From: Candidatus Margulisiibacteriota bacterium
Lineage (GTDB): Bacteria > Margulisbacteria > WOR-1 > O2-12-FULL-45-9 > XYB2-FULL-48-7
NCBI GenBank assembly: GCA_041661965.1
Contig: JBAZTH010000003.1
Location: 5,107-69,106, forward strand
DNA: 64,000 bases
Direction of reading: 5' to 3'
Shown here: positions 19,669 through 37,122 of the stretch, piece after piece
Numbering within the stretch: position 1 is the first letter of the stretch
Layout of the letters: every line of letters starts with the position of its first letter
Program-made: the position numbers and the translations under genes
Notes under the pieces: model-generated
Told to the model about the DNA's origin: nothing
The model's input: the letters and a program-made list of their open reading frames with translations, nothing else
Database searches by the model: none

Positions 19669-19738
19669 AATAATGTCAAATGACCAACCTGCCTGCCGGC
19701 GCCGAGCGAGTCCGCCGCAGGCGGACGAGTCGAGGCGT

Positions 19739-19809: not shown

Positions 19810-20177
19810 TCCTTCGACTCGGTCGCTTCGCTTCCTCGCTCAGGACAAGTTCCTCTTTCGAGTCGAAGGATGTCGAGCGAACGAAGTGAGTCGAGACTTC
19901 TAGATTACTTTATTAAATAAATCGGCTCTACTCCAACAACAGGGGCCAGCACCCAATTTAAGCACATAGTGCTTTGACTCTCAATCTGTAATTTTTAAAG
20001 TTTCTGAAGCCGAAGGCTCTTCGTCCGATCTTATTAGTAAATGTTGGTGTCATGGTCGAACTGCATTCTTTGCACTTGACCATTCCAGGGAATAGGAAAT
20101 GTTTAGCCGGATGCCATTTTGGGACCAATTTCCGTTTGTGAAGCGCTTGATCTGCTCAAATTGTTTGCCACTGATTA

Positions 20178-21083: not shown

Positions 21084-21235
21084 TACATAAAATAATATAC
21101 TGATAGTACCAAGCCACAGGGAATCTTCGGTGTTGATGCGGGCTCATTTAGGGTTGGATGGCGGTGATAGAATAGCGATGAAACATTCCAAGAATATAAA
21201 GAATATTTAGGCAAGTAAAATAAATCAAAGAAAAG

Positions 21236-21577
21236 GTGGTGGAATATATGGGTTTCGACAAACAAATTAAAATATTTATAACGCAAAATGAGGCGTCATG
21301 TCTTATTAATCACGCATTAAAAGTCAATGCTTATAATTGTTGCCGGGGGGTTGATGAAAGCAACTTGAAGAGCATTTACAATAAAATAAGCGGTCAGGGT
21401 GAATATGAATTTAATTCACTAGAGTTAATTATTATGAGAATAATATTAAATTGTTATGATGCTTACTGCAATGATGAAATGAGTGCAAATAGGGAGACTG
21501 GTGGTGAATATCCCGTTAAAGAATTAAAAAGCACTGCAAAATCTCTTAATGATAAAATTAAACAATTGTTGGGGTAA
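21236..21577 (+). CDS. Hypothetical 113-aa protein (AT-rich islet)
   Basis: ORF with AT-rich codon usage like the neighbouring ankyrin gene; no recognisable motif. Confidence 0.3.
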   Translation: MVEYMGFDKQIKIFITQNEASCLINHALKVNAYNCCRGVDESNLKSIYNKISGQGEYEFNSLELIIMRIILNCYDAYCNDEMSANRETGGEYPVKELKSTAKSLNDKIKQLLG

Positions 21578-21593
21578 ATGTAAAAGCAGCTTT

Positions 21594-22316
21594 TTATTTG
21601 CTTTGCTCAAATTTGCGGCATAATTCGCTAAACCCGGCCGCTAGGGCGGGGGCTCTGGCCGCTTCATCATCATCGTGCTTAAAAAAGACGAACACTTTTT
21701 CCCACTTCTGGGTGCCGACCTTTTTTACCCATTGCGCCAGCTGGCGGTCTGTATAGTCCGTCCGGCGCAGGCGCAGGTAACCCCAGGTCGCGGTGCTGAT
21801 GAGCTCTGTGACCGGTTTTTCATCGGTATCCTCGAGGCAGAGGGAGAAATTTCTTTTCCTTAGCAGATCATAAGTCTCTTTATTGAGCCAGGTCGTGCTT
21901 CGGAAATCGAAGGCGCAGGCTATTTTGGGGGGGATATGGCCGATAAATTTCTCGAGTAAAGGGATGTCCTGGCGAAAGCTCGCCGGGAACTGGAAAAGGA
22001 CGGGGCCCAGCTTCTTGCCCAGGACCGAGACGATCGTGAAAAAATATCTGGCTTCTTTGCTGACGTTTTGCAGCCGTTTAATATGGGTGATCATTTGGGG
22101 TGCTTTAACGGCGAAGATAAATCCGGCCGGGACCTGGTCGGCCCAAGCCTCCACCACGTTGATTGTCGGCATCCGGTAAAAAGTGTTGTTTATTTCGACG
22201 GTCATCAGCCGGCTGGCGTAAAAAGAGAGCCTTTTCCCCGCTGAAATCTTTTCCGGATAAAAATTCCCTTGCCACTCCTTGTAGCCGTAGCCGCTGGTGC
22301 CGATATAATAATTCAT
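21594..22316 (-). CDS. DUF72 (YecE-like) family protein
   Basis: N-terminal YIGTSGYGYKEW...FYP signature of DUF72; 240 aa. Confidence 0.7.
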   Translation of the reverse strand: MNYYIGTSGYGYKEWQGNFYPEKISAGKRLSFYASRLMTVEINNTFYRMPTINVVEAWADQVPAGFIFAVKAPQMITHIKRLQNVSKEARYFFTIVSVLGKKLGPVLFQFPASFRQDIPLLEKFIGHIPPKIACAFDFRSTTWLNKETYDLLRKRNFSLCLEDTDEKPVTELISTATWGYLRLRRTDYTDRQLAQWVKKVGTQKWEKVFVFFKHDDDEAARAPALAAGFSELCRKFEQSK

Positions 22317-23848
22317 GGCGACTGCCTCCGCCCGGCTCTTTCGCGGATTGCCTCGGCTGGAGATTTATCTTCGCGGAACCTCACAAATTTCGGCTGCCGC
22401 ATCACGCCGTCTTTTGTCCATTCCGTAAAAGCGACTTCGCAAACAAGCTCCGGCTTTACCCAGGTGACGGTTTCACTCTCGGGCGGGAGGGCGCTAAGCG
22501 GACAGTTCTTCCGAACCAGGGGCCGAAGCCGGTCGTAGATCATTTTGATATTTTGCCCGCCAAACCCGCCGCCTGAATGGCCGACATAAATAAGTTTTTT
22601 GTTTTCGAACGCGCCCAAGACCAGGCTGCCGAAATATCCCCTTGAGCCGCGGGGCCGGGTGAAGCCGACAATAACGCAATCTTGCGTCGGTTGGTACTTT
22701 ATCTTCAGCCACAGTTTGCTTCTGACGCCCGCTTGGTACCGGCTCTTCGCATGTTTGGCGACGATTCCCTCCAGGCCTTGTTTTTTCACCGCCTTGAAAA
22801 AAGAGACGCCGTCCTTTTTTACGTGCTCGGCATACCTGACGCGCGCGTCGTCAGGCAGGACCTGTTTAAGGAGTTCTTTCCTTTTTCGGAGCTCCAAACC
22901 GGTCAGGTCGCGGTTTTGGTAAAACAGGATATCAAATACGTAATAGATCAAACGGCCGGGAACCCGGCGCCGATAATCCTGAAGCAGCTGAAAAACCGGT
23001 TTGCCGGTCTTATCGACGGCGACCACCTCGCCGTCCAGCACGGCGTTAAATTTGAGCTTTTTCAGGGATTCCACGATCCCGGGAAATTTGTCCGCGAGCG
23101 AGCGCTGGTTGCGCGAGTAGAGCAAGACGTTGTTAGGGCTGATCTCGGCGATCGCCCGGTACCCGTCCCATTTGACCTCGAAGATCCAGTCGTCGTTGTC
23201 GAACGGCTTGCCGGCGGCAGTCGCCAGCATTGGCCGGACTTTGTGCGGCCTTGCGCCGGGCTGGGCAGGTGTTTTACCCGCCGGTTCCTCAATGGGCTGG
23301 TGGGAAAGCACGGACCGGTCGCGCTTCAGAATGTCGGCGGTAGATGCGTACCGGTCTTTTTTCTTTATCAATAGCCAGGAGTTTTTGTCCCAGCGCGTCT
23401 TGATCAGCGCGAATTCCCCTTTTAGTTTTTCCCCCGCCAAGATGAATTTTAGATCGCCTTTCTTTAAGCCTTGCAGCAGGAGGGCTTCGCTTTTTTTCTT
23501 GTCCAAGGAAGAGAGCGGGCTGTAAAATCCCCGGTCCCAGAGCAGAACTTTACCGGCGCCGTAATTACCTTCGGGTATGACCCCCTCGAAATCTTTATAA
23601 TCAAGAGGGTGGTCCTCGACCATGACAGCCAGCCGTTTTACGGCCGGATCAAGGGAGGGCCCTTTGGGAACGGCAAAGCTTTTCAGCACCCCCTGCATTT
23701 CCAGCCGGAGGTCGTAATGAAGGCGTCTAGCGGCATGCTTGTGCACGACAAAAATCGGGTATTCTCTCTTGTCTTTGCTGTCGAACCCCCCCGGAGGTTC
23801 CGGGGTTTTATTGAAATGCCTCTTTTTTTTATATTTACTTAAGGTCAT
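22313..23848 (-). CDS. ligD: ATP-dependent DNA ligase LigD: 3'-phosphoesterase domain plus ligase domain
   Basis: N-terminal PE domain (HYDLRLE...VPKGPS); ligase motif I EVKWDGYR, plus motifs III-V; 511 aa. Confidence 0.8.
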   Translation of the reverse strand: MTLSKYKKKRHFNKTPEPPGGFDSKDKREYPIFVVHKHAARRLHYDLRLEMQGVLKSFAVPKGPSLDPAVKRLAVMVEDHPLDYKDFEGVIPEGNYGAGKVLLWDRGFYSPLSSLDKKKSEALLLQGLKKGDLKFILAGEKLKGEFALIKTRWDKNSWLLIKKKDRYASTADILKRDRSVLSHQPIEEPAGKTPAQPGARPHKVRPMLATAAGKPFDNDDWIFEVKWDGYRAIAEISPNNVLLYSRNQRSLADKFPGIVESLKKLKFNAVLDGEVVAVDKTGKPVFQLLQDYRRRVPGRLIYYVFDILFYQNRDLTGLELRKRKELLKQVLPDDARVRYAEHVKKDGVSFFKAVKKQGLEGIVAKHAKSRYQAGVRSKLWLKIKYQPTQDCVIVGFTRPRGSRGYFGSLVLGAFENKKLIYVGHSGGGFGGQNIKMIYDRLRPLVRKNCPLSALPPESETVTWVKPELVCEVAFTEWTKDGVMRQPKFVRFREDKSPAEAIRERAGRRQSP

Positions 23849-24750
23849 ACATTAGGCAGCCTTTGTTTTTTGGTTAAGACTTCCCGGAAAAGGTCCCCGT
23901 CTTTTCCCACTCTTTTAACGGCTTCAGCCGCCAGGACCTGGAACTTATCCGGTTTTTTCAGTTTTAATAATTTCTCGAGCTCCGGCCATTTAAGCGGGCA
24001 AGAAACATACGGTTTTTCCTCGGCGCGCAGGGAATAAGCGCAGACCATCGTCTTGGAGGCGTCATTTTGCGACCAGTTGATAAAAACCTTGTTCCGGCGA
24101 TATTTTTTGTCCATCCTGGCGGTGACCAGATCGGGATATTTATTCTGCATCGTTTCCGCTACCGCCCGGGAAAAGCTCTTGGTATTTTCGAAGCTCGTCC
24201 CTTTTGAATTCAGCGGGACAAACACGTGCAGGCCTTTTCTGCCTGAAGTTTTTACCCAGCTTAAGAGGTGCTGGCGGGCCAGCAGCTCTTTTAGAATAAG
24301 CGCTACTCTGGCGCAGTCCAAGATGTCCGCGCCGTCGCCGGGATCAAGGTCGAAAACCACGGCGTCGGGGGTGCGGTAAGAAGCGGCCCTGGCCAAAGGG
24401 ACATGAAGTTCGATCGACGCGAGATTTTCCAGCCAGATGAGAGTTTCCAGATTATTGGCCAAACAATAAGCTATTTTCTTGTCTTTGCCGTACGGGAGCG
24501 CCGCTGTTTTCACCCAGTTGGGGCGGTGCGCGGGACACCGTTTTTCAAAAAAATATTCCTGGTCGACTCCCTGCGGATAACGTTTTAGGGTCAAGGCCCG
24601 ATCCTTAAGGTGCGGGAGAATGAAACGGGCGACGCGGCTGTAGTATTCAAGAATACGCACTTTAGTAAAACCATAGGCAGGGTAGAGGATTTTTTCGGGG
24701 TTGGACAGGGACAACTCCCGATCATTGATGCTTATGTTTTTTTTGTTCAT
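23845..24750 (-). CDS. LigD polymerase/primase (Pol) domain protein, encoded as a separate gene
   Basis: LigD-Pol-like sequence (VVFDLDPG, GRKGLHVFVPL); 301 aa. Confidence 0.75.
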   Translation of the reverse strand: MNKKNISINDRELSLSNPEKILYPAYGFTKVRILEYYSRVARFILPHLKDRALTLKRYPQGVDQEYFFEKRCPAHRPNWVKTAALPYGKDKKIAYCLANNLETLIWLENLASIELHVPLARAASYRTPDAVVFDLDPGDGADILDCARVALILKELLARQHLLSWVKTSGRKGLHVFVPLNSKGTSFENTKSFSRAVAETMQNKYPDLVTARMDKKYRRNKVFINWSQNDASKTMVCAYSLRAEEKPYVSCPLKWPELEKLLKLKKPDKFQVLAAEAVKRVGKDGDLFREVLTKKQRLPNV

Positions 24751-25552
24751 CGGCTTTTCTCATCTTGCGCATGCTTTCCTGCAGGGCGGCCATGAGATCG
24801 GCCATCCCTTCCTCCGCCTCTTCGTCTTCGATCTCCGGGGCTTCGACCGCCGCTTTTTTCCCTATTTTCTTTTTTATGAGATCAAGAAAAGCCTGCCGGC
24901 GCCGGTCCGAATATTTTTCCGGGGCGAAATCAGCCGTCATCTCCTTAATGATTTTTTTGAGGCGATCTTTTTCTTTTTCCGTGAATCCGGCCTTTTTCCG
25001 GTCCTTGCCGGGAATTATTTCATCGCTGTAATGCAGAGTATTCAGTTCCAGGGCGCCGTCCCTGTTCTTGATTAGGGCCAAGTATCCCCGCTCGTCGAGC
25101 ACGAATTTCGCGATCCCGGCCTTATTGGTCTTTTGCAGGGCCAGGGCGAGAAGCCGATAGGCTTTTTCCCCGCCTTTTAAAGGAACGAGATAATACGGGC
25201 GTTCGTAATAAATGGGGGCGACCTCATTAAGGTCGATGAATTCAGATATTTCAATGGTGCGGCTCCGCTCGGGTGAGACCGATTCCAATTCCTCGTCGGA
25301 GATCATGATGTGCCGGCCGGGCGCTATTTCATAACCCTTGGTAATTTCCTCGGGAGGGACAATGGCTTCATCTTCGGGGCAGAACATTTTCCGCTCCAGA
25401 GGAGAATAGTCCTTGTCATGCAGCAGGCGGAAGGCGATCAGCCCGGGGGCCAACGCCCGGACCAGTCGTACGGGGATCGCTACCAGGCTGAAGCTGATTG
25501 TCCCGCTCCAGATCCCCTGCGGAGCTGTTTTTGGGGGTGAAGTCTTTTTCAT
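24722..25552 (-). CDS. ku: Ku protein (NHEJ), copy 1
   Basis: Ku core beginning IWSGTISFSLVAIPVRL; lysine-rich C-terminal tail; 276 aa. Confidence 0.8.
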   Translation of the reverse strand: MKKTSPPKTAPQGIWSGTISFSLVAIPVRLVRALAPGLIAFRLLHDKDYSPLERKMFCPEDEAIVPPEEITKGYEIAPGRHIMISDEELESVSPERSRTIEISEFIDLNEVAPIYYERPYYLVPLKGGEKAYRLLALALQKTNKAGIAKFVLDERGYLALIKNRDGALELNTLHYSDEIIPGKDRKKAGFTEKEKDRLKKIIKEMTADFAPEKYSDRRRQAFLDLIKKKIGKKAAVEAPEIEDEEAEEGMADLMAALQESMRKMRKADEQKKHKHQ

Positions 25553-26322
25553 CAGGCGGCCGCTTTCTGCAGGCTTTCTTCCAGTACCTCAAGCAGCTTG
25601 CTGGGAACGGTGGCTGTAAGGTGTTTGGGCTTGGAAAGCCTGATCTTTTCACCGCGCGCTTTTTTCCCTATCAGAGCGCGCAATTTTTTCTGATGCTCAT
25701 CGGTATATTTTTCGGGCTGAAAAGGGACGGTCAGCTTTCCGATCAATTCGCCGGCAATGTTCAGCTCTTTTTCGGATATGGAAAACGACTCCAAGCCCAG
25801 GGATTTTGCCCGGATTATCTCATCCGCGAACCTTAAGACGATCAAATTGAGCGATTTACCGTCCGACCGCAAGGCGCCGAGGTGTGCTCGCTTTCTCATC
25901 GTCCAGGTGCAAAGGCCTTGGCGGCCCGTTTCCTTCAGCGCCGCCGCCAGCAGGCCATAGACTTTGCCGGGAGCCGCCGGTTCAAGGCGATAAGTCTGTC
26001 CCATGAAAACCGGATCGATCGCATCGGTCTTGACAAATTCGTGGACCGCAATCGTCCGGCTTGGTTTGGGTTCCGTTTGTGCAAGTTCTTCAGGGGAGAT
26101 CGGGATATAGCTTCTTTCACCAACCCGAAAACCTTTTAACTGCTGGTCTGATGAAACCGGCGTTTTTTCGTAGGCGCAGATCATCTGCTGACGGAGTTTT
26201 ATCCCGTCGGTTTTGTGGAAGAGATGGAGCTGTATTCGGTTCTGGCTAACCGCGGTAAGCAGTTTGACCGGCACATTCGTGGTTTTAAAATGTATGTTCC
26301 CAATCCATAAAGTTTGTGCCAT
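25552..26322 (-). CDS. ku: Ku protein (NHEJ), copy 2 (tandem paralogue)
   Basis: LWIGNIHFKTTNVPVKL Ku core; about 256 aa counted from MAQTLW; adjacent to copy 1 with a 1-nt overlap. Confidence 0.75.
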   Translation of the reverse strand: MAQTLWIGNIHFKTTNVPVKLLTAVSQNRIQLHLFHKTDGIKLRQQMICAYEKTPVSSDQQLKGFRVGERSYIPISPEELAQTEPKPSRTIAVHEFVKTDAIDPVFMGQTYRLEPAAPGKVYGLLAAALKETGRQGLCTWTMRKRAHLGALRSDGKSLNLIVLRFADEIIRAKSLGLESFSISEKELNIAGELIGKLTVPFQPEKYTDEHQKKLRALIGKKARGEKIRLSKPKHLTATVPSKLLEVLEESLQKAAA

Positions 26323-26455
26323 AAATAACCTCTTATGAATACAGGCGATTATATCATAGGTCAAATAGCGGAGGTAGAGCGATATTTGATCTAGCTTGGG
26401 CGCAGGACGAATTGCCTAAGTCGGGAAATTTTGCTAAAATAGATTAATATTCGAT

Positions 26456-26532
<77 letters not shown>

Positions 26533-26905: not shown

Positions 26906-28270
26906 TTAGTTTCCCCGCAGCATTTTATCGAGTTCATCCGGCGAGGCGTTGGTCACCTCAAAAAGCAGTCGTCCCAAACCTTCATTTTTGATCTCTTCGC
27001 GATTATTCCAGACCCAGGCGCCGAAATTGAGGTAATGGCGGCTCTTTCCCATGTATTCCATTAGCTCGATAAAAGAAGAGACTTTCGATCGTGTTCCATC
27101 GGCAGATTCTTTTTTAAGGAGAGTTTGAATTTCCGGATTACCGATAGATTCGAACATTCTGGCTAGCCTCTCCCGGCCGTGCCGTTCAAAGACCCCTTTG
27201 ATCCGGTCATAATTTTGGACCAACGCATTCTTTAGCCAATCGGGATAAGGGTCCTGCTTTTCAACTTCCATATTTTGTTCCACAAATTGGTCCCGTTCAT
27301 AATCGGTGTAGCCGCCTTCTTCGGTGACCGTGTACGAGCGATAAAGTTTAACCCCCATCTCTTCCAGCCGGGCGACCCGCCGGTCATATTCCTCCTGGAT
27401 AATGGCGCCGTTTTCATCGTACAAGTGCGGCGTCGACAGGGGGAGGGGGAGAGTTTCGCTTGGGAGCTCTTCAACCAAACGAATGCCCATGTTCCCTTCC
27501 CGGACATTGGGGCGGGAGGCGAATTGCATGTCCGGAACGTTAAGATAGCAAGTTATATTTAAATCTGGCTTGTCCATGTAAGGGGTTACTGTCCAGGTGA
27601 CTCGGTCGCCAGTCAGCTGTTCTCTGGCCTGTTGCCATTCCTCTTCAGTTTGAACCAGGAACTTCCTGCCGGTCAGCTCGCTTAGCCGTTTGGCAAATTC
27701 CATGGCGTCGTCCAAACTCACATAAGTGACGGTTTTCCCTTCATTGGCCGGATCAGAAAGGAATTCCCTCAATTTGTCAGCGTTGTGTCCTTTGATTTTA
27801 TAACCGGCCATTACCTGCTTAAACAGAGTAACCGCGACTTCCCCCCTCATGATTTTTCTTTTGCCTGAAAGGGTGAGCATTTCGGGAAGTTCCAAGGCAG
27901 TCTGTTGGACGGCGGCTGGGAACATCTTTTGGATCCCGGCCAGGTTTTCTTTGTCGCCCAGAATGAATAAATGCTCCTCATTTGTCAGAAAGGCCGACAG
28001 CTCCAGGGAAACGAAGATCGTTTCGGCGGTTTCGCCGCCGGCCGCCCTTGTTTCGAGCGAAGGCTGCATGCCCAGCAGCCTGATTTTGGCGATCCGGTCG
28101 AGATGGATGCCATTGAGTTCGATCCTCTGTCGTTGGCAGAGCGCGGTGAGGCAGGGGCCAAGCCGCTCCTTGCCGATCGCAAAAGAAGAGATATCGACAA
28201 CTCCCCGCAAAGCCGGCAGGGCTCTTTGGGACAAGTGAATTATTGATTTATTGGTTACCGGCGTGATCAT
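26906..28270 (-). CDS. Paralogue A (454 aa) of a five-member family: conserved N-terminal domain, degenerate FGE-sulfatase (SUMF1-like) motif region, unique C-terminus
   Basis: N-terminus MITPVTNKSIIHLSQRALPALRGVVDISSFAIGKERLGPCL shared with paralogues B-E. Central LPEM...GEVAVTLFKQVMAGY and TVTYVSLDDAMEFAKRLSELTGRKF..TEEEW resemble the FGE/SUMF1 signature (KYEVT..F..F...GY ; VSWxDAxAYCxWLSxxTGKxYRLPTEAEWE). Confidence 0.6.
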   Translation of the reverse strand: MITPVTNKSIIHLSQRALPALRGVVDISSFAIGKERLGPCLTALCQRQRIELNGIHLDRIAKIRLLGMQPSLETRAAGGETAETIFVSLELSAFLTNEEHLFILGDKENLAGIQKMFPAAVQQTALELPEMLTLSGKRKIMRGEVAVTLFKQVMAGYKIKGHNADKLREFLSDPANEGKTVTYVSLDDAMEFAKRLSELTGRKFLVQTEEEWQQAREQLTGDRVTWTVTPYMDKPDLNITCYLNVPDMQFASRPNVREGNMGIRLVEELPSETLPLPLSTPHLYDENGAIIQEEYDRRVARLEEMGVKLYRSYTVTEEGGYTDYERDQFVEQNMEVEKQDPYPDWLKNALVQNYDRIKGVFERHGRERLARMFESIGNPEIQTLLKKESADGTRSKVSSFIELMEYMGKSRHYLNFGAWVWNNREEIKNEGLGRLLFEVTNASPDELDKMLRGN

Positions 28271-28273
28271 AGT

Positions 28274-30010
28274 TTATTTGTCCTTAAATGATTCGATTTC
28301 CTTGAAAAGCGCCAAAATGACGGGACGCAGGTTCAGTGTCGCGGAACAGCGTAACTGATTCCGGGAAGTTGACCAGACTAAAGGGATCTCCCCGTCAGGC
28401 AGATCGGTGAGACGAATCGTCGTTGGGGAAAAATAGCTTTCAGCGGGTGAAAAAACGATCGTCATTTTGTTGGTTTTGAGCTTAATATTCAGGTAAACAA
28501 TTTTTTCCGTTACTTTAGTTGGCGCGCCGTCTTTTTTCTCTTCATACCTGGCCGGGATGTTGTGGATCACAAAGACAAACTCATTTGGATGGGCGTTCAA
28601 AACTCTCAACTGGTAAGGGCCTGCCTTAAAGAACTTTTCCCGTCTGAAAATACCCGGCTCGGCCACGCGCAGGGCGGCACAAAGAGTTGTCCAGGAAAGG
28701 TCTGTTGATTTTAACAATTCAAGACGAAGGGGTTCAAATTCCGATGGTAGGGCTTCGACAATCTGGCGGAAGTTGAAATCCCTGATATAGTTCCAGCCGA
28801 CCGGGCCATTGCGGGTCTGGGTCCGATTGGGCAGAATTTCCCAGCTTAAAGAGATGTTTTCCAGATCATCCGGAGAAACCAGGTAGGTGTTCAAGCCTTT
28901 ATTGGGAGCGCTTAATTCAATCCCGTTTTCGACCAGCCTGGCGGTCAAAGAGATTTCAGCTGTCCCGGCGGAGGAAGATGGTTCGCTCCCTAATGAGCCG
29001 GTTTCAAATCGCGTGGCGACGTTATGGATCAAAAGCGTCAGGTTGGCCGGATTAGGGTCTAATATTTCAATCTTATGAGGGCCGGCTTCAAACTTTTTTG
29101 CTTTTTCGGCCGGTTGGTCGACCAGCGAGATCCCTTGACCCCGCAATTGCCGCCGCATTGCTCTTAGCCAGGTTTCTGAAAGCGGATCGGCATTGACGTC
29201 TTCGACCAAAACAATCGAACTGCTGGTCGAGCGCTCGTTGAGGCCGCAAGTGTTCAGACCGCCGGCTCTGGAGAGATGACGGCGAAAATATATTTCTTCG
29301 TCTTCGTCAGGCCTCGATTCGGTCAGCGCCCATGAGGGGCGAAACTTAGCCGAATCCTTTTTCAGCGCTCTCAATATTTCCTGATTAGTCGGTACCCGGA
29401 ACCTTCGGCCGGTCAGCTCGCTTAAGCGCTTGGCAAACTCTCTGGCGTCCAATAAGTTGGCAACCAGCCTGTTTGCTGCCTTTGCCGGTTCGCTAAGTTC
29501 CGCCCGCAGCAGAGCGGCATTTTGGCCAACAATGAGATAGCCCTCCATCACCTGCTTGAATAAGCCAACTGTAACGGCGCTTGTCATAATGCGGAGTTGG
29601 TCGGAAACGTCAAACATTTCCGGTAGCGCGAGTTGGGGTTGAGGGGAGGAGAGCAGGGCCGGATTGGAAAATGTCCTGGCCAACAAGCTGACGTTTTGTT
29701 TATCGGCTAAAAGAAAAAGCGCCTGTTCTTGCGTTAGAAAAAGCTCAACCTGTAAATCAGCGAAGATATTTTCCGCAATGGCAAAGCCGGCCGCTCTTTT
29801 TTCCAGAGATGGGGTCATTCCCAGCAACCGGATCTTAGCCGTATTATCGAGATATATTCCCTTTAGCTCAATCCCTAAAAGCCCTCTTAGGCAGGGGCCA
29901 AGCTTTTCTCTCCCAAGGGCAAAATAAGATATCTCGACCACCCCCCGCAAAGCGGGCATGGGCTTTTGCGGCAAACGGATGATCGATTTGTCGCTTACCG
30001 GCGCTATCAT
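28274..30010 (-). CDS. Paralogue B (578 aa), same family, longest and most divergent C-terminal region
   Basis: N-terminus MIAPVSDKSIIRLPQKPMPALRGVVEISYFALGREKLGPCL; LALPEM...VTVGLFKQVMEGY; LLDAREFAKRLSELTGRRFRVPT. Confidence 0.6.
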   Translation of the reverse strand: MIAPVSDKSIIRLPQKPMPALRGVVEISYFALGREKLGPCLRGLLGIELKGIYLDNTAKIRLLGMTPSLEKRAAGFAIAENIFADLQVELFLTQEQALFLLADKQNVSLLARTFSNPALLSSPQPQLALPEMFDVSDQLRIMTSAVTVGLFKQVMEGYLIVGQNAALLRAELSEPAKAANRLVANLLDAREFAKRLSELTGRRFRVPTNQEILRALKKDSAKFRPSWALTESRPDEDEEIYFRRHLSRAGGLNTCGLNERSTSSSIVLVEDVNADPLSETWLRAMRRQLRGQGISLVDQPAEKAKKFEAGPHKIEILDPNPANLTLLIHNVATRFETGSLGSEPSSSAGTAEISLTARLVENGIELSAPNKGLNTYLVSPDDLENISLSWEILPNRTQTRNGPVGWNYIRDFNFRQIVEALPSEFEPLRLELLKSTDLSWTTLCAALRVAEPGIFRREKFFKAGPYQLRVLNAHPNEFVFVIHNIPARYEEKKDGAPTKVTEKIVYLNIKLKTNKMTIVFSPAESYFSPTTIRLTDLPDGEIPLVWSTSRNQLRCSATLNLRPVILALFKEIESFKDK

Positions 30011-31344
30011 GAGCTTTTAATCTCCGATAGATCAGACGCGGCTTTCAAGACTTCAATATACGGCTCTATTAATTCCGCGAGCTTCTTTGGACACCGCGCC
30101 AGCAGGCTGGCGATCCGCTCCATTCCGTTTTCTTCCCGCAAAAACACCCCCAGAAGCTCCGAAGCTTCTTTGGGGAGGAGGTCTTGAACCGCGACGACGA
30201 CACAGGCCGAATCGTCCGCCAGGCGCTGGAAAAGGGGGAGGGCGTAGTCGGGGTGGTTCACGGCCAATTGGTGCATGATCCTGGGCATTACTTTAAAATT
30301 AACATTGTCCCCCCTGATCATCGTCTTTAATATTTCGTTGACATCAGCCTGGTCGATGAGCGAGAGCGCGGCCACGGCCCTTCGGTGTTCCACAACACTC
30401 GCAAGATTAAAGGCCGCATGGCCGAGGTCAAATCGGAGCCAATTAGCCAGATCCTCTGTCTTTCTGTCATCCGTGCGATTGATATATCGATCCATGATTG
30501 AGGGGACGGTGGCGGATGTCCCAATTGGAAGAACCTCGACCAGGCGGATCGCGTTGCTGGAAAAGCGCTCCCAGGGAATATAATTATCGCGGCCAGAGCG
30601 GCCCCGACAGCGGAGAACAAAAGAAGGTTTTTCGTAAGAGGCGCCCGCAGATTGTGTCATCGTCCATTCCCAATTTGAGCCGAACAAATCATCTGTTACC
30701 GCTTCCCATTCTTCTTCGGTTGGGAGCCTGAATTGCCTGCCGGTGAGATCGCTTAATTTCCGGGCAAATTCTACGGCATCATCTAAGCTTGCCCAAGTTA
30801 ATGTGCCGCCTTCTTTTTCTGGATCGGCAAGAATTTTTCTAAGTTCCTTGGACCAAGCTCCTTCAAAGCTATAGCCGGCCATCACCCGCTTGAACAAGCT
30901 GACCGTTACTTCATACTTCATGATCATGAGGCCGTCTGAAATAGGGACCATTTCGGGCAAGGCAATTTGCGGTTGGCCGGCCGCAGCGGGAGGAATCGCC
31001 CCCCTGACCATCAGATCGTCATTCTGTTTGTCGCCTAGAATATAAAGCTGTTTATCTTGCGTTAGGAAGGCTGACAGTCCCAGCGAAGCGAAAATAGCCT
31101 CGGGTGTTTCGGCGACAGTTCTCGTTGCTAGATCAGGGCGCATTCCCAGGAGCCTAACTTTGGCGGCGGTATCGAGCTGAATCCCTATTAGTTTGATCTC
31201 TTGTCGTTGGAAAAGCTTGGTGAGACAGGGGGCGAGATTATCTTTGCCGATAGCAAAAGAGGAAATACTGGCCACTCCCCGCAAAGCCGGCAGGGCTCTT
31301 TGGGACAAGTGAATTATTGATTTATTGGTTACCGGCGTGACCAT
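30007..31344 (-). CDS. Paralogue C (445 aa); best-preserved FGE-like motif (TLTWASLDDAVEFARKLSDLTGRQFRLPTEEEWE); C-terminal domain shared with paralogue E
   Basis: First about 70 coding nt are identical to paralogue A (1 mismatch); C-terminal about 90 aa nearly identical to paralogue E (MHQLAVNHPDYALPLFQRLADDSACVV...). Confidence 0.6.
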   Translation of the reverse strand: MVTPVTNKSIIHLSQRALPALRGVASISSFAIGKDNLAPCLTKLFQRQEIKLIGIQLDTAAKVRLLGMRPDLATRTVAETPEAIFASLGLSAFLTQDKQLYILGDKQNDDLMVRGAIPPAAAGQPQIALPEMVPISDGLMIMKYEVTVSLFKRVMAGYSFEGAWSKELRKILADPEKEGGTLTWASLDDAVEFARKLSDLTGRQFRLPTEEEWEAVTDDLFGSNWEWTMTQSAGASYEKPSFVLRCRGRSGRDNYIPWERFSSNAIRLVEVLPIGTSATVPSIMDRYINRTDDRKTEDLANWLRFDLGHAAFNLASVVEHRRAVAALSLIDQADVNEILKTMIRGDNVNFKVMPRIMHQLAVNHPDYALPLFQRLADDSACVVVAVQDLLPKEASELLGVFLREENGMERIASLLARCPKKLAELIEPYIEVLKAASDLSEIKSS

Positions 31345-31352
31345 GATTGTTT

Positions 31353-32222
31353 TTATTTGCTCGATGGCATTAATTGAGAAAAGAAAGCCATTCCTTCTAA
31401 TACTTCCGGGACCTCTTCGGGCGTTATATTTAATTCTTTTGCTAAAACGTCCGTACCAAGCTTTTGGGTGTGGCCGATCAGTTGCGCGCCGCTTATTGCT
31501 ATGCCTTTGTTTGCATTAGAAAGGTCAGCTATCACTAATTTTAATTGTTCGAACATATTGGAGTAGGTACCACACATATAAATCTGGAATACGAGCAGTC
31601 CCATCAGGGCCGCGCTTTGCGGAGACTCCCGATTGTTAACGACTTCCCTGATCAACGCTACTCCACTTGCCCCGTTCCCCTTTATTAAAATCTCTCGTAT
31701 TAAATCAGCCAGAAAACGTTCTTTTTTAATGAGGTGGTCAGGATAAATAGTTTCTTCCGCTTCACGTATTTGCCCGGTGATTTGAAGAGGGGGAACGCGA
31801 TATTCCAATGCTAATCTAACGTCGGATTTAATTATGCCGGCTATTCTGTCGGGACCAATCTCTGCGGCCATCGGTTTAATATTCCGTTTATCCCCTAAAA
31901 TGTAAAGCGCCTCATCCTGTGTCAGGAAAGCTTGGAGCTGTAAACCGGCGAAGAGGTTGCCGGCGGTCCCATCGGCTGATCTTGTTTCGAGCGAAGGCTG
32001 CATGCCCAGCAGCCTGACTTTGGCGATCCGGTCGAGGTGAATGCTGTTAAGTTCAATCCCCTGTTGTTGGCAGAGTGCGGTGAGGCAGGGGCCGAGCCGC
32101 TCTTTACCGATCGCAAAAGAAGAGATCTCGACCACTCCTCGCAGTGCCACTCTCATTGTAAAAGCTGGCACGGCCTTTTGAGGCAAGCGAATTATTGAAT
32201 TACCGGTTTTTGGCGCTACCAT
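31353..32222 (-). CDS. Paralogue D (289 aa): shared N-terminal domain only, followed by an unrelated C-terminal region
   Basis: MVAPKTGNSIIRLPQKAVPAF..LRGVVEISSFAIGKERLGPCLTALCQQQ; lacks the FGE-like segment. Confidence 0.55.
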   Translation of the reverse strand: MVAPKTGNSIIRLPQKAVPAFTMRVALRGVVEISSFAIGKERLGPCLTALCQQQGIELNSIHLDRIAKVRLLGMQPSLETRSADGTAGNLFAGLQLQAFLTQDEALYILGDKRNIKPMAAEIGPDRIAGIIKSDVRLALEYRVPPLQITGQIREAEETIYPDHLIKKERFLADLIREILIKGNGASGVALIREVVNNRESPQSAALMGLLVFQIYMCGTYSNMFEQLKLVIADLSNANKGIAISGAQLIGHTQKLGTDVLAKELNITPEEVPEVLEGMAFFSQLMPSSK

Positions 32223-33547
32223 GAACTTTTAAGCTCCGATAAGTCGGACGCGATTTCCAATAATTCGATGTGCGGCATAATTAATTCCGCGATCTCCTTT
32301 GGACACCGCGCCAGCAGGCCTACGATCCGCTCCATCCCGTTTTCTTCTTTTAAAAACACCCCCAGAAGCTCCGAGGCTTCTTTGGAGAGGAGGTTTTGAA
32401 CCGCGAAGACGACACAGGCCGAATCGTCCGCCAGGCGCTGAAAAAGGGGGAGGGCGTAGTCGGGGTGGTTCACGGCCAATTGGTGCATGATCCCGGCCAT
32501 TTCTTCAAGATCGCCGTGCGTCAGCATCCCCTTAAATATTTCGTCGACGTTCAGAGTGATCCGCGACAAGGCTGTGGCTGCTTGGGTGGGGTCAAGATAT
32601 TTGAGCTTTGTGGCCGCAGTGCCGAAGTCGCTGTAGCGAAGCTCGTTGACTAAATCATTTAGTCTGTTTTCTTCCACACAGCGGTCATACAGGCCCATGA
32701 TTGGGGGCCGTGCGGCGGGAGGATCAGATAAAATATCTTCGACTAAACGAATCGAGATATCCATGGAGCGGGTCTCCGGTTTTATTGTCTGGCGGTTGCC
32801 GGGGTCGACGCCGTCGTACAGGAGGCAAAGAATATAACCCTCGCTGTTTTTTGTCTCCGTCCATGTAAAATTAAGGCCTGATAACTTGTCCCTTTCCTGG
32901 AACCATTCCTGCTCGGTTTGAACTCTGAACTTTCTGCCGGTAAGCTTGCTTAAACGGTCCGCAAATTCCCTGGCATCAATTAAACTTACATAAACTATTG
33001 GATCATTTGCTCTTGACGGGTCATTAAGGATATCTCTTAGTGAATCGGCGAAATTGCCGGTTATTACGTATCCCCGCATTATCTGTTTGAACAAGCCGAT
33101 CGTCACTTCGTCCCTCATGATCGCGAGCTTGTTTGAAATAGTGATCATTTCGGGCAGGACGATTTGCGGTTGACTTGCGATCGCGGCCGAGGCAGTCGTT
33201 CCCTTGGCCATCAGATCGATGTTTTCTTTATTGCCCAAAATATACAGCGCCTGCTCCTGGGTCAGGAAAGCCGAGAGCCTCAAGGAGGAGAAAAGAACTT
33301 CGGCGGATTCAAAAAGCTCGGTCCGCTTCTCCAGCGAAGGGCCCATTCCCAGCAATCTGATCTTGGCGGTATTATCAAGTTGAATGCTTTTGGGTGTGAT
33401 CCCCAATCGTTGGAAGAGAGTGGTGAGGGCCGGGCCGAGCCGCTCTTTGCCGACGGAAAAGGAGGAGATCTCGACTATCCCCCGCAGAGCTGGTAGGGCT
33501 CTTTGGGGCAATCGAACGATCGATCTATTGGTGACCGGCGCGACCAT
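32216..33547 (-). CDS. Paralogue E (443 aa), same family; start overlaps the ATPase stop by 1 nt
   Basis: MVAPVTNRSIVRLPQRALPALRGIVEISSFSVGKERLGPAL; IVLPEM...EVTIGLFKQIMRGY; IVYVSLIDAREFADRLSKLTGRKFRVQTEQEW. Confidence 0.6.
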   Translation of the reverse strand: MVAPVTNRSIVRLPQRALPALRGIVEISSFSVGKERLGPALTTLFQRLGITPKSIQLDNTAKIRLLGMGPSLEKRTELFESAEVLFSSLRLSAFLTQEQALYILGNKENIDLMAKGTTASAAIASQPQIVLPEMITISNKLAIMRDEVTIGLFKQIMRGYVITGNFADSLRDILNDPSRANDPIVYVSLIDAREFADRLSKLTGRKFRVQTEQEWFQERDKLSGLNFTWTETKNSEGYILCLLYDGVDPGNRQTIKPETRSMDISIRLVEDILSDPPAARPPIMGLYDRCVEENRLNDLVNELRYSDFGTAATKLKYLDPTQAATALSRITLNVDEIFKGMLTHGDLEEMAGIMHQLAVNHPDYALPLFQRLADDSACVVFAVQNLLSKEASELLGVFLKEENGMERIVGLLARCPKEIAELIMPHIELLEIASDLSELKSSW

Positions 33548-36500
33548 TAATCAGGGATCCTTATCGTCAGGATTTTGTTCTCGCCTTCGGACCGGCCGAT
33601 CAGTTCAACCTTCGCGCCTCGGGCCATATTTGCGTAATCTTGCTGGATTTTGGCGATGTCAACCGTTCCCGGCAGGACGAAGGCGACATCTATTCCATCG
33701 GCCGATCTGGTCAGCGAGAGGCTGATCGGCGGGAACTTGGGCGCTTCGGGCAATTCAAGCAGAGTTTTAATGATCTCGGCCTTATATTCCGGGTCCAGAT
33801 TATTATTAGTTAACAGGTCGTTGAATGAGATGATTTGCGGGTTGGCTGAAACAAAAAATTCTCCTATCAACTTATCAAGCGGGGCCATCATTCTCGGCGG
33901 TTGGGATGAGGCTAAGAGAGACGCGGCCAGGTCCTGGATCAACAACACGGCCCCGTTATTCTTAATAATATTGTCGCTAGGATTGAGGATAGGGGCGAGC
34001 GCTTCCGCCAGGGGCTTGGTCGGCGGAGAAAGTTCAATCTTTATCTCTCTGTTCGCGATGATGCTGAAAACAAAGCTGGTGCCGGTTTTACCGGCCTTGA
34101 TGGCCAGAGAGCGGCTGGTCCCGTCGATATATTTCTTCCTGAAGTCCGCCAGTCTTGGCCCTTCCTCGCGGGCTTCTCTGTCCGCGTTATAAACAACGAT
34201 CTGGATATCGTTGGCCCGGCTTATCCGCCAACGCACGATTATCGGTTTGTCCCGCTCATCGCCGGTGAGTTTTTCTTGCCGGTCTTTGGCGGCATAGATC
34301 AGGGTGGAGAGGGCGCGCAGGACGGCTCCCTGTTCGGTTTCGGGCAAGCCGCGGGCCGTCAACAATTCCTTAAGACCGGCCTGGGCTGATTTGATTTTCG
34401 GATCGACTTTGGCCTTGTCTCCGGGGGAAAGAGTTATTTCCCAGTCCGGCTTGTTGGTAAATTGCGCTGCTTCTTTCGCCTGTTGGAGTTCGTCGGCAAT
34501 CGCTTGGGCTAGCGCGACTATCCCGGGATTGCCGCTTTTGAGAAGCTCGGGGAGTTCCGCTTCGAGCGCTTGCCGGTCTTCGGTTGTCAGAGCCTGTTTG
34601 ACCTTGGCTAGCGCTTCGGCCCGGGCTGTTTCGTCCTCCGGCCAGGGATTTTCTTCCAGCCAGAGCTCAACTTTTTCTGCCCCTTTGGGCGGGGAGAGGA
34701 GCCCGCCGATCATGGCGGCGTCGACTTCCGCTCCGGCCGCGACCAGTTCGCGGATTTTGCGTAAAATTATTCCTTTGCGGCCGTGAATTTGGGCGATATC
34801 CATCTGGCGACCCCGCTCCGACTTGTCGGTGGTTTCTTCAAAGCGAAGTTCCCCATCCCGGACCGAGATCTTGATAATATGTTCGCCGTTTGGCATATTA
34901 TTGACCAGCCAGGCGGAAAAAGTATTGTCGAGATGCTCTTCAAGCGCTTGCTTTAGCGGCCGGGCGCCCCCGGCCAGGTCGATTCCTCTTTCCATAATAT
35001 ATTGCTTGACCGCCTGGTATTCAGTCTCATCCCCGCCCAGGACGACCTCAAGCTTTTGGTCGGTTTCTACCTGGGCGACAAAATTTTTCAACTGGATATC
35101 GGCGATGGCCGAGAGGTCGGCTTCGTTCAGATAATCAAAAGGAACAATATCGAGCCGCCGGAGAAAGGCGGGGGGATATTTGTCGCGGCCATATTCATCT
35201 TTCTGGCTTTTAAATGAATTAGCGGCGATCTCGCGGTTTGCTTTGGTCAACCCGTCGGCGATCTTCTTAGCTTCTTCCGGCGCTTTGCCGGCGGCCAGCT
35301 CCCTGATCTGTTCGGGCTTGAGCATTTGGGCTTCCCCCTGGTTCGAGGTCATGATGACCACTACGTCTTCGAGAGAATATTTTTCACCGGTCTCTTTGTT
35401 CTGAACATAACCCTGGTCGAGCATCACTAATAATGATTCATAAACATCCGGGTCGGCTTTGTCCGCTTCGTCAAGGAGGAGGACCCCGTGGCGGTTCTCT
35501 TTTCTTTTAAAGAGCTCCGGCAGCATCCCTTTGGTTTTGTCAAACCCGACAAAACCGGGATCGGGGCCGAAGAGCAGGGTCTTTCCAGCTTTCCCTTCGC
35601 ACTGGGTCATATCGATCGTCATGACCTTTTGCGCGTTGCCGAATAACAGCCAGGCCAGGGTGTGGGCCAGTTCGGTTTTGCCGGTCCCCGTCGGTCCGGT
35701 GAACATGAAAGCGGCGATCGGCGACTGTTTTTTGCGTCGGCCGGTCTTATACCGTTTAACGGCGCCGGCAACTTTCCCGACCGCCTGGTCCTGTCCGATG
35801 AAGCGGGTCCTGATCCGTCCCTCGATCTGGCTAAGCTGTTGAATGTCCAATTCATCCATTTTGCGCAGGTCAAGGCCGGCCATTTTCGAGGCCTGGGCGC
35901 GAATATCGTCTTCGGTAATTGTCAGGCAGCCGGACTCAGCCAGTTTGCGCACAACTTTTTCCACCAGCAGTTCGCTTTCCAGGTAAGCGGCGACAATCCC
36001 GATGACCGATTTCCAGATACCCTCTAATTGCGGGCGGGTGGCTGGATCGGCGGCAAATTCGATCAGGTCGTTGATATCGTCGGCCAGCTTTTTCGGGGTT
36101 TCCGTTACGATCCTTCTTAAGTCGCCGAGCTGGCTCCGTTTACTGCCGATCGCTTCTTTGATCAGGGCGATCGTCGCGTCCGGCGGGAAGCGGTTGACGA
36201 TCAGCGGCGAGAGGTCGATCGCCGCCTGGCGCGAAGCGGGCGGGACCTCGATCTTTTCCACTCCTCTTAGTTTCTCCAGGATGACCGGAATGATATTCCG
36301 GACCAGCCGCCGCAGCTTGTCGCCGGTCAGCGATTCGATATTGATCGGATCGCCGAACCGCCGTTTGGTGGCGTCGTTATTAAAATAGCGATAGAATTCT
36401 CCCGTTGTCGTCGCACCCACGACCTGGAAACCGGGGCGGGCGAGGGGTTCCTTCAACAGTTCGAGAACGCCCGCTTGTTCCATCAGGTGGAGTTCGTCCA

Positions 36501-37122
36501 TCAGGAGGTAAACGGTGTAGCCCTGTTTGAAGGCGTCTTGGACCGTTTCGACGATCTGTTTCAACTGCGGTTCGAGGACCGAGCGGTCGAGATCTTTCAT
36601 CCCCAGGCTGAAGAAGTAGGTTTTTTCCTCATCCTTCCACTCCTGGGCCAGCCCTTCGACGATCGCCGTTTTTCCGACGCCGGTGTTGCCGATCAGAATA
36701 GCGTTGCTGCCGCCCTTCAGCCGTTTGGAAAGCTCCGCCATTTCGTCGCTTCGTTCAAAGACCGGATCGAGATCGCCGGCGCGGGCTTCGCTGGTAATGT
36801 TGCGCAGGCCAAGTTCTTCCAGCTTTTCGATCGGGGTTTTCGGCTCGCCGTCACCCGCGCCGTTGACGCCGTTGGTTCCGTTAACCGCGCCGTTGCTTTC
36901 GAGGCCGGCCGGATTTCTCGCGATCAGGCTTAATTCATCGCGGATCAGGGTCCCGGCGGGCGTCAGGCTTAGCAGGTTGTGAGTCGGTGGGGCAATTTCT
37001 TTTGTTATTCGTCCTCCGGGTAACAAGCTCGGGTGGTTTACAAACGTGCTGCGAGCGGCGATGGTCAGTTCCCTGATCAGGCGGACGCTTTGTCTGATCG
37101 GCAGTCTAGTTAGAGCTTCCAT
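33547..37122 (-). CDS. Divergent Clp/Hsp100 (ClpA/ClpB)-like double-AAA+ ATPase, 1191 aa, with a non-canonical about 130-aa N-terminal region and an about 450-aa C-terminal extension
   Basis: NBD1 Walker A ILIGNTGVGKTA and Walker B YLLMDELH; NBD2 Walker A FTGPTGTGKTELA, Walker B VLLLDEADKA, and the GARPL sensor-2 motif characteristic of ClpA/B D2. No recognisable Clp_N domain; C-terminal region is unique. Confidence 0.75.
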   Translation of the reverse strand: MEALTRLPIRQSVRLIRELTIAARSTFVNHPSLLPGGRITKEIAPPTHNLLSLTPAGTLIRDELSLIARNPAGLESNGAVNGTNGVNGAGDGEPKTPIEKLEELGLRNITSEARAGDLDPVFERSDEMAELSKRLKGGSNAILIGNTGVGKTAIVEGLAQEWKDEEKTYFFSLGMKDLDRSVLEPQLKQIVETVQDAFKQGYTVYLLMDELHLMEQAGVLELLKEPLARPGFQVVGATTTGEFYRYFNNDATKRRFGDPINIESLTGDKLRRLVRNIIPVILEKLRGVEKIEVPPASRQAAIDLSPLIVNRFPPDATIALIKEAIGSKRSQLGDLRRIVTETPKKLADDINDLIEFAADPATRPQLEGIWKSVIGIVAAYLESELLVEKVVRKLAESGCLTITEDDIRAQASKMAGLDLRKMDELDIQQLSQIEGRIRTRFIGQDQAVGKVAGAVKRYKTGRRKKQSPIAAFMFTGPTGTGKTELAHTLAWLLFGNAQKVMTIDMTQCEGKAGKTLLFGPDPGFVGFDKTKGMLPELFKRKENRHGVLLLDEADKADPDVYESLLVMLDQGYVQNKETGEKYSLEDVVVIMTSNQGEAQMLKPEQIRELAAGKAPEEAKKIADGLTKANREIAANSFKSQKDEYGRDKYPPAFLRRLDIVPFDYLNEADLSAIADIQLKNFVAQVETDQKLEVVLGGDETEYQAVKQYIMERGIDLAGGARPLKQALEEHLDNTFSAWLVNNMPNGEHIIKISVRDGELRFEETTDKSERGRQMDIAQIHGRKGIILRKIRELVAAGAEVDAAMIGGLLSPPKGAEKVELWLEENPWPEDETARAEALAKVKQALTTEDRQALEAELPELLKSGNPGIVALAQAIADELQQAKEAAQFTNKPDWEITLSPGDKAKVDPKIKSAQAGLKELLTARGLPETEQGAVLRALSTLIYAAKDRQEKLTGDERDKPIIVRWRISRANDIQIVVYNADREAREEGPRLADFRKKYIDGTSRSLAIKAGKTGTSFVFSIIANREIKIELSPPTKPLAEALAPILNPSDNIIKNNGAVLLIQDLAASLLASSQPPRMMAPLDKLIGEFFVSANPQIISFNDLLTNNNLDPEYKAEIIKTLLELPEAPKFPPISLSLTRSADGIDVAFVLPGTVDIAKIQQDYANMARGAKVELIGRSEGENKILTIRIPD

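Follow-up and report, generated by a model that had tools for sequence, protein, structure and literature searches.

A 64,000-nucleotide stretch of DNA from a Candidatus Margulisiibacteriota bacterium (GenBank assembly GCA_041661965.1, contig JBAZTH010000003.1, positions 5,107 to 69,106; hereafter the window) carries on its minus strand the gene of a Clp/Hsp100-type double AAA+ ATPase, flanked upstream by the gene of a conserved protein and downstream by an array of five paralogous genes. The 1191-residue open reading frame (ORF) of the ATPase fills its interval on the minus strand (Table 1), and the plus-strand frame there is riddled with stop codons. A 544-kb contig of a Candidatus Margulisiibacteriota metagenome-assembled genome is the source of a deposited identical protein, whose sole annotation is "AAA family ATPase". 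The genes form a tight operon, in which the start and stop codons of successive genes overlap or lie almost next to each other; the stop of the upstream gene overlaps the ATPase start by 17 nucleotides, and the start of paralogue 1 overlaps the ATPase stop. What is new here is a very narrowly distributed Clp/Hsp100 lineage that combines a new domain architecture with a new conserved gene context.

In Pfam, the second nucleotide-binding domain (NBD2) of the ATPase matches AAA_2 (PF07724, residues 468-659, E 2.9e-29) and ClpB_D2-small (PF10431, residues 665-742, E 2.4e-8), NBD1 gives generic P-loop matches only, and the protein has no Pfam match to Clp_N (PF02861) or to the NBD1 lid family. PF02861 is carried by nearly all of the other sequences among the matches listed in the homologue search. 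The best relative of known structure is Bacillus subtilis ClpC (PDB 3j3s, E 5.5e-67), to which the homology starts around residue 87-105 and stops at residue 764. Since the alignment spans residues 87-764, the atypical N-terminus comprises about 100 residues and the C-terminal extension 425 residues (767-1191). Searched alone against Pfam at E <= 10, residues 1-120 return nothing and residues 752-1191 return just one match at chance level (E 0.011). An earlier reading of this DNA made without database searches (the sequence-only reading) had described residues 1-130 as Pro/Leu-rich and devoid of Clp_N; Clp_N is indeed absent, but the enrichment is only mild (7.7% proline and 13.1% leucine, against 4.1% and 10.9% in the core), and the atypical stretch is closer to 100 residues than to 130. 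The same reading had pointed to about 450 odd residues after NBD2, which are confirmed and refined to the 425 residues given above, without Pfam relatives. As observations that would make the protein an ordinary one it had named a standard Clp_N, a ClpB middle domain and an ordinary C-terminus, and none of the three was found after alignment.

Table 1. Features of the ATPase and of its cassette partners, in window coordinates.
Feature	Position	Strand	Basis
Conserved upstream protein, 330 aa	37106..38098	-	ORF; orthologue alignment; hydropathy
Clp/Hsp100-type double AAA+ ATPase, 1191 aa	33547..37122	-	ORF, Pfam, NCBIfam, ClpC match, alignments, tree
N-terminal extension in place of Clp_N, residues 1-100	36823..37122	-	no Pfam match at E <= 10; five-sequence alignment
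NBD1, residues 101-330	36133..36822	-	alignment with ClpC and ClpB sequences; motif positions
Short helical middle region, residues 331-420	35863..36132	-	alignments; ClpC-like length, not the long ClpB M-domain
NBD2, residues 421-765	34828..35862	-	Pfam AAA_2 and ClpB_D2-small; alignments
Family-specific helical domain, residues 766-890	34453..34827	-	AlphaFold2 model and alignment
C-terminal alpha/beta module A, residues 891-1035, predicted GHKL-like fold	34018..34452	-	AlphaFold2 model, Foldseek, alignments
C-terminal alpha/beta module B, residues 1036-1191	33550..34017	-	AlphaFold2 model, Foldseek, weak profile match
Paralogue 1, 443 aa: N-domain, truncated FGE-sulfatase-like domain, ARM-like helical repeat	32216..33547	-	
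Paralogue 2, 289 aa: N-domain and short helical C-terminus	31353..32222	-	
Paralogue 3, 445 aa: N-domain, FGE-sulfatase-like domain, ARM-like repeat	30007..31344	-	
Paralogue 4, 578 aa: N-domain, FGE-sulfatase-like region, two internally repeated C-terminal modules	28274..30010	-	
Paralogue 5, 454 aa: N-domain, FGE-sulfatase-like region, distinct C-terminal module	26906..28270	-	

The nucleotide motifs of both rings are clearly preserved, with Walker A at residues 145 (GNTGVGKT) and 476 (GPTGTGKT), Walker B at residues 206 (LLMDE) and 547 (VLLLDE) and the GARPL motif at residue 719, and the Walker motifs of both rings are conserved across the family. Alignment with ClpC- and ClpB-type sequences shows that NBD1 retains, besides its Walker A and B, the GATT sensor and the RRF arginine finger. 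The tyrosine pore loop of this ring, AGTKYRGEFEERLK, is three residues shorter in the ATPase, where it reads KDLDRSVLEPQLK (KDLDRSVLE); in a distant family member (locus L006) the same loop is KDFIRGEIE. The second NBD1 pore loop, GAxDAxN, falls into a seven-residue gap and is thus deleted. NBD2, on the other hand, retains an aromatic pore loop, GFVGF, in which phenylalanine replaces tyrosine, together with the sensor-1 SN, the FLRRL arginine finger, the sensor-2 GARPL and the D2-small domain. Aromatic pore loops were looked for in both rings (KYRG in NBD1, GYVG in NBD2) and one is present in NBD2 only; among the hallmarks of class I Clp/Hsp100 proteins, the two Walker A/B modules and the AAA_2/D2-small/GARPL combination are found and Clp_N is not. 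Since only NBD2 keeps an aromatic pore loop, any substrate threading, as judged from the established Hsp100 mechanism, most probably depends on NBD2. The description of both AAA+ cores as canonical in the sequence-only reading thus applies to the nucleotide motifs (Walker A/B, GARPL) but does not extend to the NBD1 pore loops, which are degenerate.

In the alignment, the middle region matches that of ClpC in length and shows gaps against ClpB. Tripeptides of the form [ILVM]G[FLM] occur in the ATPase only as LGL104, LGM173 and VGF525, the last of which is the NBD2 pore loop, and neither a regular-expression search nor the alignment revealed a ClpP-docking tripeptide between the NBD2 sensor-1 and the arginine finger. 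At the position of the VGF/LGF ClpP loop of ClpC the ATPase has EAQMLKPEQIRELAAGKAPEE, a charged helical insertion which is about 50 residues longer in two members of the family. That no (I/L)G(F/L) loop could be spotted had been remarked before, and the search and the ClpC alignment agree on it. Because the ClpP loop is absent, the sequence supports a role as a remodeller rather than as a partner of a protease.

The N-terminal extension consists of a conserved start (MEALTRLPIRQSVRLIRELTIAA), a variable part and a Gly/Asn-rich stretch. Within the family the AAA cores are conserved best, at 63-78% identity to distant members, and the N-terminal extension (37-42%) and module B (19-21%) least; by this measure the termini are the fastest-evolving parts of the ATPase, and module B is the fastest of all.

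A profile of the C-terminal extension searched with HMMER against 1.84 billion representative sequences found only family members and no outside relatives. An AlphaFold2 model of the extension, built on an alignment of three sequences, reached a mean predicted local distance difference test score (pLDDT) of 76 and a predicted template modelling score (pTM) of 0.39, and consists of a helical domain (model residues 15-120) and, after it, two units, modules A and B, each with helices and a beta-sheet against which helices pack. In the family alignment, the helical domain carries the invariant motifs KSERGxQMD and KGxxKxELWxEEN, module A carries a near-invariant Y(A/V)AK(D/G)xQEK in place of an N-box, and module B proceeds from helices to a beta-sheet that ends ...LTIRIPD. 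In a Foldseek comparison with the PDB, the top match to the model is B. subtilis RsbW (6m37_C; E 6.6e-4, probability 1.0, target TM-score 0.76, root-mean-square deviation 3.0 Å over 128 columns), the output not distinguishing which of the two modules was matched. Further top matches are SpoIIAB, UsfX, SiaB, the RsbW part of Rv1364c and the DHp+CA units of the histidine kinases EL346, DesK and LOV-HK. At the level of the model, these matches suggest a GHKL/Bergerat-type fold for the C-terminal modules.

The likeness to RsbW, SpoIIAB and the histidine-kinase CA domains is one of fold and is not accompanied by sequence similarity. The N-box asparagine and the G1 (DxGxG) and G2 ATP-binding boxes are not recognisable in the family alignment, in which the N-box and G1 were placed by eye against the RsbW pattern, without a structural alignment; the supposed G1 site reads YNADRE, SNSDT or SSSST in different members, so that an "NxD" is not conserved. 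A GHKL identity at the level of sequence was accordingly rejected, with no HATPase_c match in Pfam at E <= 10 and nothing significant in a PDB profile search; a weak profile match connects the helical part of module B with the histidine kinase 8f71 (E 0.61). An internal duplication giving rise to modules A and B was likewise discarded, as hhalign found no similarity between them. We know of no GHKL-type modules fused to a Clp motor, and literature searches for a Clp-GHKL fusion or for a Margulisbacteria Clp system found no description.

The ATPase falls far below the NCBIfam cut-offs of all Clp subfamilies. The best score is obtained with the ClpB model TIGR03346 (268.8 bits, cut-off 1232.1), followed by ClpV/TssH TIGR03345 (242.7 bits, cut-off 884.95), ClpA TIGR02639 (224.4 bits, cut-off 993.15), the second ClpB model PRK10865 (209.8 bits, cut-off 1417) and the exception models for ClpG (194.1 bits) and ClpK (191.6 bits), each of which has a cut-off of 1900; the scores thus amount to 10-27% of the cut-offs. 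In a rough neighbour-joining distance tree, calculated on 663 core columns and comprising Escherichia coli ClpA and ClpB and ClpC- and ClpB-like matches, with no ClpV sequence, the five full-length family members occupy a long branch of their own, at 27-33% core identity to the rest. The suspicion of an atypical Clp protein, for which a phylogeny had been suggested as a check, is therefore upheld by both the NCBIfam scores and the separate branch (in a tree without ClpV), and the protein fits no standard subfamily. Just four relatives with the full architecture were found in 5.8 billion proteins, and searches for distant homologues of the paralogues, the upstream protein and the C-terminus likewise retrieved only family members. 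The lineage appears to be a real Clp/Hsp100-type remodelling motor, found so far only in Margulisbacteria, the sister lineage of which are the cyanobacteria; all loci of the cassette come from metagenome assemblies of this one candidate phylum.

Of the established motors, ClpC (B. subtilis ClpC/MecB, 3j3s; Staphylococcus aureus ClpC, 6em8) is the closest by sequence and likewise combines two AAA+ rings with a short middle region, and we infer for the ATPase a similar dependence on docking partners, following the logic of MecA. In contrast to ClpC, the ATPase has neither Clp_N nor the VGF/LGF loop, its NBD1 loops are degenerate, it carries the 425-residue C-terminal extension, and the core identity is only about 30%. 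With ClpB/Hsp104 it shares independence from ClpP, the D2-small domain and GARPL, but it lacks the long coiled-coil M-domain and Clp_N, and it is encoded in a dedicated cassette rather than in a heat-shock context. ClpV/TssH is comparable as another specialised Clp-type ATPase, one whose genetic ties are to dedicated partners instead of ClpP; its N-terminus differs, however, and no type VI secretion system (T6SS) genes were reported at the loci of the ATPase.

The upstream protein has no Pfam, NCBIfam, PADLOC or PHROG match. Four orthologues show a mean column identity of 77%, and relatives are confined to 8 among the 5.8 billion proteins, the three with a source name being labelled Margulisiibacteriota. 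A single hydrophobic segment at about residues 33-62, with a Kyte-Doolittle 19-residue maximum of 1.8-2.2, lies at the same place in five orthologues, and no comparable segment is present in the hydropathy profiles of the other cassette proteins of the window. The protein is thus a probable membrane or membrane-associated protein.

The five paralogues have in common an N-domain of about 110 residues, which in most of them is followed by a truncated FGE-sulfatase-like domain. With the Pfam family PF03781 (cut-off 23.3 bits), the 445-residue paralogue p445 scores 32.5 bits, the protein L001_456 from another locus 41.4 bits and the 443-residue p443, just below the cut-off, 22.1 bits; the matches span only profile positions ~16-141 of 255. 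Foldseek relates this region to ToxD and PvdO and also to an FGE-like protein of the cyanophage Microcystis phage LMM01. In a structure model of p443, which rests on a shallow alignment of 10 sequences, an ARM-like helical repeat lies beyond the FGE-like domain. The first eight or so residues of the modelled paralogue are disordered, the N-domain is an alpha/beta domain of about 110 residues, and there is no long disordered initiation tail; no signal peptide was seen in the paralogues. The C-terminal module of paralogue 5 is also found in paralogues at other loci. The variable modules of the family (FGE-sulfatase/lectin-like, leucine-rich repeat (LRR) and ARM-like) are predicted to be of non-enzymatic binding types.

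At the extreme N-terminus the paralogues carry a peptide MVxPV...I..L.Q, in which P4, I10, L13 and Q15 are nearly invariant. A STAS or receiver identity of the N-domain was rejected, with no such match in PDB and Pfam profile searches or in Foldseek searches of the PDB (top 50) and BFVD; homotypic pairing through effector-associated domains was also rejected, as the N-domain showed no similarity to the ATPase or to the upstream protein in hhalign comparisons. Residues 5-17 of the ATPase (TRLPIRQSVRLIR, window 37072-37110) and residues 9-22 of the paralogues (IVRLPQRALPALRG, e.g. 33482-33523) have a pattern R-L-P-x-R...L in common, a likeness which is too short for homology and could be either a common docking peptide or a coincidence. 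A scan of the cassette for promoters and terminators gave nothing above shuffled expectation.

The order of upstream protein, ATPase and N-domain array is maintained at every informative Margulisbacteria locus, and the flanking genes differ. These loci are L001/L003 (GCA_028717325.1), L002 (JGI 3300035660), L005 (a 234-kb JGI contig), L009 (ENA) and L006 (GCA_975901625.1); on the short contigs L007 and L008 the first two cassette genes are followed by the contig end. Complete arrays contain 3 to 7 genes. One N-domain protein of L006 ends in leucine-rich repeats (LRR_4, E 1.1e-12), and the N-domains of L002, which are only about 25% identical to those of the window, show homology along their entire length (hhalign E 3.8e-5) and retain the M-V-x-P-V...I..L.Q pattern. 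Between L001 and L005 the ATPases are 86% and the upstream proteins 95% identical, yet the arrays contain 5 and 7 genes, respectively, with reshuffled modules. DNA repeats among the paralogues of the window reach 84% over 300 nucleotides. Because the arrays of L001 and L005 differ despite their close motors and because of these repeats, the sequences indicate recombination and turnover in the paralogue array. A diversity-generating retroelement was rejected: the repeats of the region are paralogue copies only, and no reverse transcriptase is among the Pfam matches of the cassette and its ten nearest neighbours.

Two further families were observed at other loci. Proteins of 342-359 residues that start MVLLSNQIIDSIRSQTIP... 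and have a hydrophobic stretch near residue 117 are interleaved in the arrays of L001 (7776-8855) and L005 (12847-13875 and 14935-16008) and are absent from the window. A lone FGE-sulfatase-like relative without an N-domain, P0132 (252 residues), is encoded at two loci without the ATPase (L010 10001-10759 and L011 2733-3491), where it adjoins a HicAB toxin-antitoxin pair and a 331-residue neighbour that shows no relation to the upstream protein.

In the window the cassette is directly followed, on the far side of a tRNA gene, by a set of non-homologous end-joining genes (22313-26364, minus strand), which comprises a tandem pair of Ku genes (270 and 276 aa) and, for LigD, a free-standing primase-polymerase (301 aa) besides a phosphoesterase-ligase (511 aa). 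DNA-repair genes are also found near the cassette elsewhere, UvrB in L006 and RecA in L002, which may be due to chance. The tRNA is a tRNA-Ile(GAT) (26456-26532, plus strand) between the last paralogue and the Ku operon, followed by about 370 nucleotides of AT-rich non-coding DNA; an island integrated at this tRNA was rejected, as the 3′ end of the tRNA is not repeated elsewhere in the window. A DUF4130 protein is paired with a radical-SAM/helix-hairpin-helix protein, and shortly upstream of the cassette region there is a LexA repressor (39088-41009 and 41648-42238, both on the minus strand); a gene for a "23S rRNA intervening sequence protein" lies at 41173-41523. A complete 16S rRNA gene occupies 44252-45745 on the plus strand. 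Since the 64-kb window has no 23S or 5S match and the tRNA-Ile(GAT) is 18 kb away from the 16S gene, the rRNA genes appear to be unlinked. The G+C content falls to 0.40 at 20001-22000, near a tRNA-Gln (19738-19812), compared with about 0.50-0.57 elsewhere.

As a working model, which we favour with less than even confidence, the ATPase would be a ClpP-independent two-ring Clp/Hsp100 remodeller driven by NBD2, and the paralogues its interchangeable receptors or adaptors. The ATPase would act as the engine of the three-part cassette of upstream protein, ATPase and paralogue array, with the common N-domain docking each paralogue onto family-specific parts of the motor, either the N-terminal extension or the helical domain and the GHKL-like C-terminus. 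The paralogues would then be swappable subunits that present ligands bound to their modules, or perhaps themselves, to the NBD2 ring, which would perform the ATP-driven pulling, and the upstream protein would tether or couple the machine to the membrane. The receptor or adaptor role is favoured because the variable modules are of ligand-binding types, because the turnover of the array exceeds that of the motor and because the paralogues have no long disordered initiation tails. In bacterial NLR-like proteins, a sensor role of this kind falls to LRR and HEAT/ARM repeats. The setting would most likely be a diversifying surveillance or conflict-type system, for example one that recognises and neutralises foreign proteins, and not housekeeping proteostasis.

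In PADLOC, the NBD2 region matches the DolB and PDC-M37B models of ClpB-like ATPases from candidate anti-phage systems (E 1e-22 and 8e-20, the DolB value being 7.9e-20), and the occurrence of single-ring ClpB-like ATPases in such candidate defence systems was counted in favour of the conflict-type setting. Dodola DolB and PDC-M37B resemble the present case as ClpB-like ATPases in a multi-gene, non-housekeeping system, but only NBD2 is matched, the neighbours have no PADLOC match and hence no DolA partner is present, and the architecture differs. An identity of the cassette with a PADLOC or PHROGs entry was rejected, the matches being restricted to generic ones of NBD2 and those of the FGE domain. 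NTPase-centred conflict systems, largely from cyanobacteria, include FGE-sulfatase-type (FGS) domains, which are combined with vWA-MoxR, STAND and GTPase cores, and no Clp-centred system was described among them (Kaur et al. 2020, eLife, PMC7159879). The cassette shares with these systems the FGS domains and diversifying modules around a central NTPase; its proteins have no Pfam matches to vWA, MoxR, STAND or GTPase families. A more specific picture, which is speculative, would be a Clp-centred modular surveillance in which a hexameric unfoldase without a first-ring grip employs pseudo-kinase (GHKL-like) docking domains and a fast-diversifying panel of plug-in receptors (lectin-like, LRR, ARM), with which foreign or specific proteins are captured at the membrane.

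Several observations speak against the receptor and surveillance interpretation. The cassette has no recognisable effector enzyme, no hallmarks of a defence island were seen near it, its neighbours being DNA-repair and housekeeping genes, and PADLOC finds nothing for the partner proteins. The N-domain was assigned no fold by Foldseek or profile searches, and its hhalign probabilities against the ATPase and the upstream protein are below 1%. The GHKL assignment of the putative docking modules depends on a three-sequence model and on Foldseek E-values near 1e-3. Finally, the paralogues could equally be clients of the motor. The sequence-only reading had proposed an unfoldase specialised for the downstream paralogues, and this is borne out in part: the ClpP-independence and the invariant synteny agree with it, but it is not established that the paralogues are clients, since receptors or adaptors fit at least as well. 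If they were clients, the ATPase would recognise their N-terminal peptide and N-domain and unfold or disassemble them, serving either the assembly of paralogue complexes or their hand-over at the membrane to the upstream protein for export, comparable to ClpV and its sheath or to Plasmodium HSP101 in PTEX. This is a serious possibility, if on balance an unlikely one. It would account for the retention of the MVxPV..I..L.Q peptide even between N-domains that are about 25% identical and for the disorder of the first eight or so residues, and it accords with the tight translational coupling of the genes, with a conserved partner that has a probable transmembrane segment and with the missing ClpP loop, owing to which unfolded proteins would not go on to be degraded. 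Secreted bacterial proteins, moreover, commonly contain LRR and lectin-like modules. However, no channel, secretin or secretion component is conserved at the loci, one hydrophobic segment offers little basis for a translocon, the paralogues have neither a signal peptide nor a long disordered initiation tail, and the number and identity of the presumed clients shift fast while the motor is conserved.

The remaining explanations are considerably less probable than this. If the GHKL-like modules were active, they could bind and phosphorylate the N-domain, which would play the part of a STAS or receiver domain, and signalling would thereby be coupled to remodelling. The top fold matches to anti-sigma serine kinases and histidine-kinase DHp+CA units, the weak match of module B to a histidine-kinase helix region (E 0.61) and the alpha/beta N-domain, at ~110 residues about the size of a STAS domain, are in line with such partner switching, which the unrecognisable N, G1 and G2 boxes, the unconserved "NxD" at G1, the absence of HATPase_c at E <= 10 and the lack of STAS or receiver matches in profile searches and among the top 50 Foldseek matches nevertheless render improbable. 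It is harder still to regard the ATPase as a divergent housekeeping ClpB or ClpC with lineage-specific decorations, next to functionally unrelated paralogues. The core is clearly of the Clp/Hsp100 type and stress and DNA-repair genes are among the neighbours in the window, but the scores at 10-27% of every subfamily cut-off, the missing Clp_N, NBD1 pore loops, M-domain or ClpP loop, the synteny with both partner families that is invariant despite different flanks and the extreme rarity of the family make this very improbable. Least credible of all is that the ATPase serves, like ClpV, a type VI or other contractile secretion system: such an enzyme would also be ClpP-independent and the TssH model does give 243 bits, yet its cut-off is 885 bits, and none of the genes called at the loci was reported to belong to a T6SS or contractile-system family.

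The well-studied Clp/Hsp100 motors fall into a few classes, namely ClpA, ClpB, ClpC, ClpE, ClpL, ClpV, ClpG and ClpK. The lineage described here breaks several rules of these motors together, having lost the Clp N-domain, the first-ring pore loops and the ClpP loop and gained a C-terminus that is GHKL-like in the model, and being genetically locked to a membrane-type partner and to a recombining family of proteins with binding modules. Whether the paralogues are receptors or clients, it would provide a natural test of what the second ring alone can do. If they are clients, the cassette would represent a new dedicated unfoldase-client pair, and if they are interchangeable receptors, an Hsp100 motor with a swappable panel of specificities, a design known from ubiquitin ligases and NLRs and, to our knowledge, not from Clp ATPases. 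Should the surveillance interpretation also be true, the system would amount to a bacterial version of F-box/cullin or NLR-type surveillance with an Hsp100 motor at its base, and the receptor role would tell what these orphan genes do in an uncultured, cyanobacteria-related phylum.

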